Assembly: GCA_951406725.2 (NCBI GenBank)
Contig: OX597826.1
Location: 36,766,001 to 36,830,000, forward strand
Reading direction: 5' to 3'
Origin: Octopus vulgaris
Taxonomy: Eukaryota
Length of the DNA: 64,000 bases
In this document: one piece after another, positions 1,865 through 58,789 of the stretch
Numbering within the stretch: the stretch's first letter is position 1
Layout of the letters: each line of letters starts with the position of its first letter
The notes under the pieces: model-generated
What the model was told of the DNA's origin: nothing
The model's input: the letters and a program-made list of their open reading frames with translations, nothing else
The model's database searches: none
Program-made: the position numbers and the translations under genes

Positions 1865-2035
1865 CGAGTTATTTTATTCTCTCTGTTTATTTCCTTTTAT
1901 TCCTTTCTGCTGAAGAGCGTAGGTTGGAAGCATAAAAGACTTTCTACCTTCCCGAGCGTCAATCTAATAATACACCTGCTTGTTGTTTATACACCTGCCT
2001 TCGTCTTTTGTTTTTCTATAAATTTCAACGATATA
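1865..2035 (+). mobile_element. Older copy of the hammerhead/(TA)n element family
   Basis: Shares TTCC(C/T)GAGCGTC..AATAA..C...CTTGTT...TTTGT(G)TTTT...AAT..AAC.ATATA with the reverse complement of 11646-11745. Confidence 0.55.
1903..1938 (+). ncRNA. Degenerate hammerhead motif, paralogue of 11745-11779
   Basis: Reads CUUU-CUGCUGA-A-GAGC-GUAG-GUUG-GAAGCAUA-AAAG. The layout and the downstream tail match the 11.7 kb element, but several core positions are mutated. Confidence 0.45.
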
Positions 2036-2076
2036 TACGTGTGTGTGCGTGCGTGTGTACGTGTGTGTATGCGTGT

Positions 2077-2506
2077 ATTCTTTTATTTGTTTCAGTCAAT
2101 TGGCTCCGACTATGATGGAGCACCGACTTTAGTCAAAAAAATCGACCCCAGAACTTATTCTTTGTAAGCCTAGTACTTATTCTATCGATTTATTTTGCCG
2201 AATAGCTAAGTTACAGGGACGTAAAAACACCAACATCGGCTGTCAAGCGATGGTGGGGGATAAACAGACACAAAAATATATACATATACATATACACATA
2301 TATATACATATATATATATATGTGTGTGTATGTATGTACACACACATACACACATATATATACGACGAGCTTCTTTCAGTTTCCGTCTACCAAATCCACT
2401 CACAAGACTGGTCGGCCCGAGTCTATAGTAAAAAACACTTGCCAAGGTGCCACGTAGTGGGAGTGAACCCGGAACCATGTGGTTGGGAAGCAAGCTTCTT
2501 ACCATA
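2077..2506 (-). mobile_element. SINE family A, near full length with internal TA/TG microsatellite
   Basis: Collinear with the copies at 11131, 47381, 48265 and 50158. Confidence 0.9.
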
Positions 2507-2516
2507 AAACCAGTAT

Positions 2517-2744
2517 TTATGTGTGTGTGTCTGTCTATGTTGGTCCTCCACTGCCATCGCTTGACATTCGATGCGGGTTTGTTAATGTTCCCGTAACTTA
2601 GCAGTGCGGCAAAAAAATGATAGAATAAGTACTAAGCTTACAAAATACAAGTGTGGAGTCGATTTCCTCGACTAAAACACTTTGAGGAGGTGCTCCAGCA
2701 TGGCCTCAGTCAAATGACTGAAACAAGTAAAATAATAAAAGAAT
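2517..2744 (+). mobile_element. SINE family A, 3' half
   Basis: CCATCGCTTGAC...GTAACTTAGC...GATAGAATAAGTACTA...GGTGCTCCAGCATGGCC.CAGTCAAATGACTGAAACAAGTAAAA tail. Confidence 0.85.
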
Positions 2745-55400: not shown

Positions 55401-56632
55401 TTTGAGAATATTATGCTAAATACTCACCCATTGTGCTTCTATATTGTACTGTGTAATCTTCCATACTTCTCAGAGACTGTTGTTTCTACAAAAGTCTGTT
55501 ATGTCCAAAGGTTATTCAGTATAAACAGTAATAAAATAAAGTTTATAAAAATCAATAATTTTAAAGAGGTAGTATTGTTAAATAAAACTGAAATATATCA
55601 TTACACTATCTTATATTTCAATATCTTTTATTTCATATCTTTGATGAATTCTTATAACTATTTCCAGCTTTTTTAAAGATATTTTTTAAATGAAAAAGAA
55701 AAAGAAATCTTGTCAAACAAAGTATTTTGAGAAAAGTAACATTTCATTTAATTTTTTTCTTCAATTTTCGTATTTATTTTTCTTTTATTTTCAATTAAAT
55801 ATTTTTTTGTTATATATTGCTGTAATTGCTTAGATGTCAACACTTGTATTAGATATAGTAAGTTTACAGGAATCTACAGACATACATACAACATACACAC
55901 ATATACGCAGTCATACAGGAAGTTGCATTGGCGAACCATCGAATATATATATAAATATATATATATATATCCAATATAAATGCCACAGACTGTTCTGAGC
56001 AAAACATTCAGTTGGAGCTTCTTCAGACACTTATAAAACCATGAGAATCTTTCACTATTATGAGATAGATTTCACTTGATTCGGTTCTTAAAATTCTTCA
56101 CCACATCAAATAGAATCCTAGAAATGCTGGATGTCAGCCTGGTAACAATGTCCGGTTATTTTAATATGCTATTCTTCATCAGGGATGCAATATACTCCTG
56201 CTGTTCGTTTACATATAATCTTTTAGTTTTTTTCTCCTCTATACTTCAAGGAAAACTTCACGTGGTTACTGAACCCGTAAGAAACAGCAAATCCATCCCT
56301 CTAATCACGTTATCGCCATTTAGGAACGTTGACATGAGATTTTGTAGCCTCGAGTTTCCTGTACATAGGAGGAGAGACTGTGGCTACGAGTCTATTTGCT
56401 CAGATATAATCTAGGTTTAAATAACAACAAGAATAACAAGACTTACTCCATGTTCTCCGTGTATTTCATATTGTTTTATTTCAATTAGTTTTAATGATTT
56501 TATCACACCGTGTTTTTCGCTTTCTGTATTTCTTATATTTGTCCATCTTGATTCAAAAGCTTTATGTTTCTTCTATCTACCAACACACTCTTTCAACATC
56601 CCTTTTTCTCTCATATTTTTTCATGTATCCCT

Positions 56633-56748
56633 ACATTTTACTGTCAACCTACCACCACCTCGTATATATATATATATATATATATATATATATATATATA
56701 TATATATATATATATATACGAGGTGGTGGTAGGTTGACAGTAAAATGT
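56633..56748. repeat. Perfect 116-nt palindrome: 30-nt unique arms around (TA)28
   Basis: ACATTTTACTGTCAACCTACCACCACCTCG, then (TA)n, then CGAGGTGGTGGTAGGTTGACAGTAAAATGT. It extends imperfectly to about 56622-56761. Confidence 0.95.
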
Positions 56749-58595
56749 GTAGGGATATATGTATATATATATATATATATATATATATATGCGAGTGTCT
56801 CTGTGCGGTCACAAGTCATGTATATCCCATACGGTACATCATAATTAGACTTAGCGAGATATTTTCCGTCAAAGTGCTCAACAAATTTTCATACATATAT
56901 ATTACATTGGGCCACAACGTAAAAGCAATAACTTAATGCAGTAAAGCAATAAAGAGAAAGGCTTAAATACTTGATATCTGATATAAAGAAAAATTGTTTT
57001 GATCATACTTAGTGTGAGTAGAAAGTCTTCAAGTGTAGTTAGAAATCTAACCGTCGCCAGGTCGGGTAAAAGCATTGGAATCCATCTGTGACTAGCAGCA
57101 TAAGGTTAGTAGTCACGTGGGATTAGTTATAAATCTATCGCGGTTTGGTGAAGTTGTGGAAACCTGACACTTTCGATCCATTCCGATGAAATATACGTTC
57201 CAGGAAGGCTACCTAAAAAGGCCCAAAATGGAATCTACAATTTCTGTATGTATTTTTGTATGTATATAGATACATACATATATATATATATATATATATG
57301 TATGTATATATATATATATATATATATATATATATATATACATATATATATATACATGTATATATGTATGCATATATATATATATATATATGTGTATATA
57401 TGTATGTATATTTGAATCACCGTAAGGTAGAAAGTGGTACATACATACATACATACATACATACATACATACATACATACATACAGAAACGTACAGCAGT
57501 ATGCATGTCTTTACATTAAAACCTACTTTCTATTTTTTGTGTCTTTCAAAAACCGATAGAATAAACAGTAGATAAAGACTGCAACCAACGAAATCGATTT
57601 TAAATTATATATATAAAAAAAATAATAATAGATAAACTTACTCTTCAAGGTTTTGCTCCAGCATGGTCACAGTCCAATGAATGAAGCCAGAAAAAGAATA
57701 AAAGAAGGCTGGAAAGCAAAATAATTTGATTGATAGTTACTGACCGTAACCATAGAAAGTGTCGCCTGAATCGTTGTTGCACAGAGCAAGTTGTTTAGTC
57801 AATGGGATATCAGGTTAACATTTAGTGAATTAAAAGATAAATGTGAAATGGACCTTAACGGATATACAATGTTGTTTGAAATGGGAAGCAGTGAAGTGTA
57901 ATAAATGGTTTATCATTTCAAAATGTCACTTAAATGTAAACTTTAGTAATCTGTCCATAACATTGTGTAGATATTGTGACAGAGGAAGACAGGCGATTGT
58001 CAATCGTGTGTTGTCGATCTTGTAAAACCATTCTCTATACTTTTAGCTCATTGCTAAATCTGCCATTTCCTAGTGACACATAGACGGGCATCAATGGATC
58101 GTTCTTTCATATTCTTTTTTCTTATTTTTTTGCTTCTTCTATTTGTAATTATTTTATTTTTTGTATTTTAAAAATATGCTTCATGCATGAATATATGCTT
58201 GCACACACACATACACACACACAAACACCCAACCGCGCACACACATACACAGTGACATCTATAGGAGTATGCACACAAATAAAAGCACATACATGCATAC
58301 ACTCCTACCCGTATGTATATATATATTGTCATAATATTAGACGTTATATATATATATATATATATATATATATATATATATACAGTCATACATACATATA
58401 TATATACATACATACATATACATATATATATATGTATATATATATATATATATATATTTATGCATTTATACCTATAAATGTATATGTATGTACACACACA
58501 TACACGTATATGTATACATATATATATGCATGTATGTATAGATATACATATACATTCATGTATATATGTATGTATATAATATATATATATATTTT

Positions 58596-58670
58596 ATTTA
58601 TTATATAGAAGGAGCTTCTACAGGACTAGAACTGTTCTAGTCCTGTAGAAGCTCCTTCTATATAATAAAT
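58596..58670. repeat. Perfect palindrome, 37-bp arms with 1-nt spacer
   Basis: ATTTATTATATAGAAGGAGCTTCTACAGGACTAGAAC, then T, then the exact reverse complement. Confidence 0.95.
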
Positions 58671-58789
58671 TAATTTTACTCTGCTATGTATTGAGTACCT
58701 TATTTACTGTGGTTAACCCCGAATCAACCCGGGACCTACATATATATATATATATATATATATATATATATATATATATATATACATAC

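Follow-up and report, generated by a model that had tools for sequence, protein, structure and literature searches.

Short hammerhead-bearing inserts on TA microsatellites of Octopus vulgaris are probably truncated ends of protein-coding Penelope-like elements

Five inserts that match the ends of longer elements

A 64,000-nt stretch of the Octopus vulgaris genome (assembly GCA_951406725.2, contig OX597826.1, positions 36,766,001 to 36,830,000; referred to below as the window) contains five short non-coding inserts flanked by (TA)n or (TG)n/(CA)n microsatellites: E1 (1865-2035), E2 (11646-11925), E3 (19131-19349), E4 (19909-20107) and E5 (58596-58740). A reading made from the sequence alone, which had located all five, saw in them hammerhead ribozymes and proposed a family of non-autonomous, self-cleaving elements of the retrozyme type with ties to Penelope-like elements (PLEs). 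The locus thus raises the question of whether the inserts are retroelements in their own right or parts of something longer. Searches of the genome containing the window (2.8 Gb, 227 contigs) indicated that they are truncated terminal pieces of four protein-coding PLE families, likely pasted into (TA)n tracts by the enzymes of those families; we give this reading a probability of about 0.88. The proposed tie to PLEs was right; each insert corresponds to the end of a longer element at which the hammerhead lies, and these elements have a reverse transcriptase (RT) and a GIY-YIG endonuclease. The retrozyme-type family found no support for these five inserts, whose longer copies run into a PLE 3′-untranslated region (UTR) and RT/endonuclease frames. 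As the sequence-only reading had stated, the window itself holds no PLE open reading frame (ORF): tblastn with six PLE frames returned nothing at E<0.01. Full-length RT plus GIY-YIG PLEs sharing these termini, for which it had proposed to look, were found elsewhere in the genome. The inserts and their parts are the following (window coordinates and strand).

1837..2029, +: E1, 5′-truncated Neptune-like PLE end, stopping on a short (TA)n/(TG)n tract; 84% to copy L069, 202 nt
1903..1938, +: E1 hammerhead, a decayed minimal type I motif with A6 substituted; this copy also has mutations in stem II and the GAAA box
11646..11925, -: E2, end of another Neptune-like PLE family, truncated at the 5′ side; matches the L258 end at 86% (297 nt)
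11745..11779, -: E2 minimal type I hammerhead with canonical core; 4-bp stem I, an extra A, 4-bp stem II
19131..19271, -: E3, arm with the tail, from an old Hydra-clade PLE copy that is 78% identical to its parent; ends on (TG)n
19233-19271, -: E3 decayed hammerhead, inside the tail-bearing arm
19292..19348, +: E3, inverted arm lacking the tail; ends on (TA)n
19909..19991, -: E4, inverted arm lacking the tail; the end of long copy L198, downstream of an endonuclease frame, matches it at 98%
19942-19979, -: E4 hammerhead; U4C core, GNRA-capped stem II, palindromic stem III
20001..20106, +: E4, arm with the tail; matches tandem unit L282 at 95% (108 nt)
58593..58636, -: E5, inverted arm lacking the tail
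58630..58740, +: E5, arm with the tail, from a second Hydra-clade family; matches tandem unit L314 at 98% (111 nt)
58630-58653, +: E5 hammerhead remnant, stem III and the 3′ half of stem I only; whole motif in L091/L092

The earlier claim of inverted pairs held for E3, E4 and E5, each of which consists of two inverted arms. The tail of E4 (20036-20106, 71 nt) corresponds in the parent to the 5′-UTR of the next tandem unit, and in L314 the RT frame begins right after the tail matched by E5. The E4 hammerhead sits in the inverted left arm, directed away from the right-hand end. E2 abuts a (TA)n tract at 11544-11645, and in its hammerhead a palindromic ACGU replaces stem III. The inserts had been divided into two sequence subfamilies; a grouping does exist, but it comprises four families, which belong to two PLE clades. 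The alignment between E1 and E2 is weak (E about 0.07), E3 and E4 are the sole pair of inserts that align within the window, and E5 is unrelated to E3/E4 at the DNA level. The distance between hammerhead core and microsatellite, given before as about 100 nt, measured 66-136 nt. A library of 11 termini revealed no further copies of these families in the window.

Neptune-like parents of E1 and E2

Beyond a CA-rich 3′-UTR, longer copies of E2 (L038 and L156) contain a GIY-YIG frame, and in L258 and L261 both RT and endonuclease (GIY-YIG) frames lie between two E2 repeats. A young sister family of E2 (L248-L257) forms 6.17-kb tandems with intact 1,008-aa frames, which contain DKG, a CX4CxxC linker and GIY-YIG (Pfam: RVT_1, GIY-YIG below cut-off); its hammerhead has U4C (intact loci) and one stem I mismatch. 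For E1, endonuclease (GIY-YIG) remnants were found upstream of the terminus in L068 and L069. When 25 loci were anchored on the endonuclease, the E1 terminus lay downstream on the same strand in 18 and the RT was reached in 17; no pseudo-long terminal repeat (pLTR) upstream of an E1 element was recovered. The L251 frame shows the features that define Neptune, namely DKG, a CX2-5CxxC linker and CCHH endonuclease residues. Over the RT/endonuclease region the E1 parent is ~50% identical to this frame and the E2 parent 80-89%. By the motifs defined in Craig 2021 (PMC8557442), in which Neptune is a paraphyletic group, E1 and E2 are assigned to Neptune-like families.

Hydra-clade parents of E3/E4 and E5

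One tail-anchored E4 copy (L174) reaches further upstream; its sequence led to endonuclease frames, and these to intact 727-aa frames. The parent of E3 and E4 is a tandem 3,431-bp unit (L282) whose 727-aa frame is intact in several loci, and that of E5 is a 7.17-kb tandem (L314), reached by walking up a GT-rich UTR. The RT of the E5 parent is 46% identical to that of the E4 parent. Both proteins have RW[K/R] (RWR in the E5 parent), DKT, a CxC-type linker (CxCX5C; L284 lacks one linker cysteine) and C-terminal CxxC and CxH, and both lack CCHH. These motifs match the definition of the Hydra clade in Craig 2021 (PMC8557442), the supplement of which lists Hydra-1_Obim, from octopus, with a (TA)n target. 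On their protein motifs, E3/E4 and E5 thus represent two Hydra-clade families. The features of endonuclease-encoding (EN+) PLEs were present: an RT with a C-terminal GIY-YIG in an element sharing the termini (elsewhere in the genome), a partial-tandem pLTR (in L282, L314, L248-L250, L258 and L261) and a hammerhead inside the pLTR. A homolog search gave 964 hits, most of them without a name.

Copy number and TA ends

All five inserts proved to be dispersed repeats, with first-look candidate copies numbering 4,183 for E1, 4,777 for E2, 1,268 for E4 and 47 for the E5 query. The idea that microsatellites act as landing sites was borne out, since (TA)n adjoined 80-96% of the sampled copies against a background of 2%; the samples were best-scoring matches, not random draws. 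A run of (TA)≥3 within 4 nt after the family end was found in 23/25 E1 and 24/25 E5 copies, in 23 of the 29 end-reaching E2 copies (30 loci) and in 25/29 E4 copies (30 loci); for the E4 tail sample the figure was 28/30. Such adjacency occurred at 2.0% of 13,151 flank positions.

Hammerhead motifs and their core variants

A relaxed scan for minimal hammerheads gave three matches in the window, inside E2, E3 and E4 (mean 0.13 and maximum 2 in 30 shuffles). The motifs had been read correctly, although within the window the canonical CUGANGA occurs in E2 only. The stem III remnant suspected in E5 is real and is accompanied by the 3′ half of stem I, and longer copies carry the whole motif. Microsatellite-driven miRNA matches dominated an Rfam search of the window, and no hammerhead was among the matches listed (150 of 375).

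Genome-wide motif counts were obtained with exact patterns and are lower bounds; each reversed control gave 0. The E2 family has the core CTGACGA in 38/53 copies. The E1 motif lies in the same frame as that of E2, with a pyrimidine at position 6 in at least 7,132 exact matches versus at least 250 with A, and the loss of A6 is a trait of the whole E1 family. In another hammerhead, A6C cleaved at under 0.1 per minute (Perreault 2011). E4-type exact motifs number at least 2,951 with U4C, plus at least 3,887 more. The E4 subfamily to which the window copy belongs has this U4C change (CCGACGA in 48/78 copies), and the youngest E4 subfamily has a canonical core in 27/39. In the E5 family, where stem I has 6 bp and stem III has 4 bp, the core is canonical in 60/64 copies; it is missing from the copy in the window. 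The catalytic core and all three stems are intact in young E4 copies, in the E5 family and in most copies of the E2 family, with U4C or an A6 change elsewhere. The predicted hammerhead fold was near the minimum for E5 only, the others being 3-6 kcal/mol above it. Self-duplexes of stem III (-7.8 kcal/mol for E4, -12.8 for E5 and -1.7 for E1/E2) would be compatible with folding as dimers. Because thousands of copies carry changed core letters, these data suggest that the predicted hammerhead need not cut for the elements to spread.

In the young E4 parent and in the E5 parent (L282 and L314), a pyrimidine-rich stretch ending in AG lies just 5′ of stem I; the AG is missing from the older E4 subfamily. 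In Drosophila virilis Penelope, a splice acceptor abuts helix I (PMC4209133). Four contigs from sequencing runs guessed to be RNA contained neither an intron-like joint near the hammerhead nor an RNA start or end, and the depth peak over the terminus in these contigs reflects copy number.

Two fixed ends, inverted pairs and the retrozyme alternative

The Hydra-type tandem parents have two fixed ends: the arm end and, 71-77 nt further, the tail end, which lies inside the 5′-UTR of the next unit. Contigs from four public studies showed loose TA ends at the same two places. Among 20 long, endonuclease-anchored E4 copies, 13 could be resolved, of which 10 end at the arm end and three at the tail. 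Short copies arranged back to back combine one tailed and one tail-less arm in 19/20 pairs (15 by script, four by eye). Their junctions are heterogeneous: 20 of the 30 copies in a tail-anchored sample were inverted, the breakpoints of all 20 differed, and among the 20 back-to-back pairs 15 spacers were unique.

This arrangement bears on whether the inserts could be retrozymes, that is, short tandem units that are transcribed, self-cleaved, circularised and reinserted. They do have type I hammerheads, their 150-280 nt overlap the retrozyme size range (Cervera 2020, PMC7229834), and an origin of retrozymes in PLE pLTRs has been proposed (Li 2026, bioRxiv 10.64898/2026.07.22.740005). However, among 311 motif matches in the fetched loci there was no short head-to-tail array (150-700 nt period, no TA run between), and the three close same-strand neighbours had TA runs between them. 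Each strand carries a single hammerhead, E5 lacks the core, longer copies continue into PLE ORFs, and autonomous elements of the same families exist. We therefore regard a retrozyme origin as highly improbable.

A common stopping point and TA microhomology

Short Hydra-type copies stop at a common distance from the tail end: 29/30 tail arms stop within 155 nt of it and 20/20 inverted arms within 163 nt. By-catch copies fit this wall (E4 3/3, E5 4/4). On the same scale, the first position of the core is -138 and cleavage is predicted at -108. Since the arms end at a wall beyond -108, the copies include the predicted cut site and break off shortly after stem I, which would be expected of an uncut template whose 5′ end lies there. 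A pause of the RT or a short master copy are alternative explanations of the wall. The start site of D. virilis Penelope is located in the pLTR and precedes the intron adjoining the hammerhead. A corresponding wall in the upstream pLTRs of full-length copies was considered and found no support, the three measurable E4 cases extending over 133, 303 and 463 nt. Nor was a wall evident in the Neptune-like families, for which by-catch samples were small and 14/16 E2 copies extend past the core. Seven of these 16 E2 copies stop 202-217 nt from the end, possibly at a second wall or at the boundary of a subfamily.

At six of seven mapped ends, the next letters in the read-through sequence were 4-6 nt of alternating TA, compared with 0-7% at nearby positions; the E4 tail end was the exception. 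The placement of the sites was our own, and E1 stood outside this comparison. No publication on PLE priming at microsatellite microhomology was found, which is weak evidence of absence.

These observations can be accommodated as follows. The family endonuclease would nick the (TA)n target, and the RT would start at an internal site of the element RNA, often stopping early. As the TA tract is self-complementary, priming may occur on both strands, giving one product per start site. Two short products joined at a short palindrome would then yield an inverted pair with exactly one tail. The hammerhead would be copied through uncut, so cleavage is likely unneeded for these insertions.

A more specific version holds that each short inverted element is a stereotyped copy of the 5′-terminal part of a PLE transcript, primed by annealing to TA. 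The transcript would start 10-25 nt before the hammerhead, which stays uncut; at the two internal start sites, a few UA bases would anneal to both strands of the nicked (TA)n, and the RT would work in a telomerase-like manner and run off the RNA end. The hammerhead would be a folded RT-binding or 5′-end element instead of a cutter, which would explain why A6- and U4-substituted families exist at thousands of copies. We advance this version tentatively, as somewhat less than an even bet; if it is true, the genome offers a ready-made allelic series for the question of the role of PLE hammerheads.

Several points weigh against the view that the inserts are truncated PLE ends made by the enzymes of their own families. 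No intact full-length ORF of E1 or of the window-type E2 was recovered, their parents being degenerate, and every full-length E5 parent seen was frameshifted. The Hydra-type proteins had no Pfam or PDB match; their identity as RT/endonuclease derives from motifs and weak BLAST matches to Neptune-like RTs (E 1e-3 to 4e-7), and the remaining support is a by-eye match to Hydra-1_Obim. Twin priming and an uncut template are inferred from DNA only. Finally, the short Hydra-type copies form a discrete size class: in Hydra-type pairs, 11 spacings are ≤61 nt, none falls at 101-460 nt and 16 exceed 460 nt. Of the 20 pair junctions, six centre on one CTAG, three are identical and two others are identical to each other, so that a small palindromic master may add copies.

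Taken further, E3, E4 and E5 might all be copies of small, non-autonomous palindromic masters that parasitise PLE enzymes. The discrete size class, the wall at about -155 nt and the recurrent CTAG-centred junction would fit, as would the 100% identity of E5, over 141 nt, to a copy on another contig. Against this stand the differing breakpoints and the mostly unique spacers reported above, as well as the subfamily variants shared between short and long copies; in addition, the recurrent junction is a 4-nt palindrome already present in the parent. Such masters are thus an unlikely source of these three inserts, and truncation of PLE copies remains the preferred explanation.

Comparison with known systems

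The Hydra-type families share protein motifs, a (TA)n target and a type I hammerhead with the C-terminal EN+ PLEs of the Hydra clade (Hydra-1_Obim, Hydra-2_aMil; PMC8557442). By eye, Hydra-2_aMil agrees with E4 in stem I, stem III and the cleavage letter, and the Hydra forms listed there agree with E5 in a four-pair stem III and the U-U closing of stem II. The units found here (3.4 and 7.2 kb) are longer than those given for the clade (<3 kb) because of their long GT-rich 3′-UTRs; the tail is also longer (71-77 versus 30-40 nt), and the large U4C subfamily of E4 has no counterpart in the Craig 2021 table. That study was the only one found to describe Penelope-like hammerheads from octopus.

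E1 and E2 share with Neptune-type PLEs (PMC4209133; PMC8557442) the DKG, GLRF, CX4CxxC, GIY-YIG and CCHH-type residues, as well as a minimal hammerhead with an extra nucleotide after A9, G10.1-C11.1 and a palindromic ACGU (PMC4209133). As here, Neptune-type PLEs occur mostly as solo truncated copies, and pairs on opposite strands have been reported. The E1 family lacks A6, whereas the core variant given by Cervera and de la Pena (2014; PMC4209133) is U3-A8; no variant at A6 or U4 was seen in that source.

In vitro, Poseidon_Ac (Frangieh 2024, PMC11167929) shows the same layout, with a tail bounded by two internal sites at which the RT starts. Cutting and extension take place on both DNA strands; the RNA substrate is mainly unprocessed, and mutating the hammerhead does not abolish insertion. 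The start site of Poseidon_Ac is not homologous to the cut DNA, whereas alternating TA adjoins six of the seven ends mapped here. Metazoan non-LTR (long terminal repeat) retrozymes (PMC7229834; bioRxiv 10.64898/2026.07.22.740005) share with the inserts a type I hammerhead, a short non-coding size and a proposed PLE ancestry, but they are tandem units that each contain a hammerhead, whereas the inserts are ends of coding elements, present singly or inverted. Recently active Penelope-like families are listed in a 2026 repeat annotation of Octopus vulgaris, the main text of which does not contain the words 'hammerhead' or 'ribozyme'.

The inserts are new members of known PLE clades, and insertion at TA, inverted termini, a tail and RT starts at internal sites have all been published; the inserts should be annotated as PLE debris and not as a new ribozyme retroelement. 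Their residual value lies in the young, intact Hydra-type and Neptune-like families with their tandem source loci. Core variants at thousands of copies and two start sites mapped precisely on TA microhomology make it possible to test directly whether cleavage by PLE hammerheads is required and how PLEs locate microsatellites, two questions called unresolved in Craig 2021 (PMC8557442).

Other elements in the window and the fetched loci

An open 534-aa RT frame at 58940-60544 (-) of the window (Pfam RVT_1, E 4e-31) is not that of a PLE; we take it to be a CR1-like long interspersed nuclear element. L113 contains a full relative of 1,043 aa, the N-terminal region of which resembles an endonuclease. 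At 56401-56770, a pyrimidine-rich stretch ends on (TA)n, with a 50-nt inverted copy across the tract; it looks like two facing ends of another TA-targeting element and had no match in the fetched loci. A dispersed repeat of ~180 nt, presumably a short interspersed nuclear element, has eight copies in the window (1616-1793, 11384-11560, 50409-50579 and others) and 132 matches in the fetched loci; ARAGORN found no tRNA in it.

A very young two-ORF PLE with many near-identical copies (L146-L155; for example, L148:736-5330) lies next to an E5 copy and was considered as a parent, but its ends differ from those of E1-E5. Its upstream frame of 430-470 aa overlaps a 784-aa RT plus GIY-YIG frame, and its pLTR of ~900 bp ends on (TA)n; a relaxed pattern found no hammerhead core on the sense strand of this pLTR. 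The AT-rich PLE frames in L040/L145 and L160 were likewise rejected as parents, being neighbours only. They belong to further Hydra-like PLE families (L145:6500-7100, L160:3700-8500, L040:1-1450), which have inverted termini and hammerhead-like motifs of their own and are nested in the TA tracts of E2 and E4 copies.

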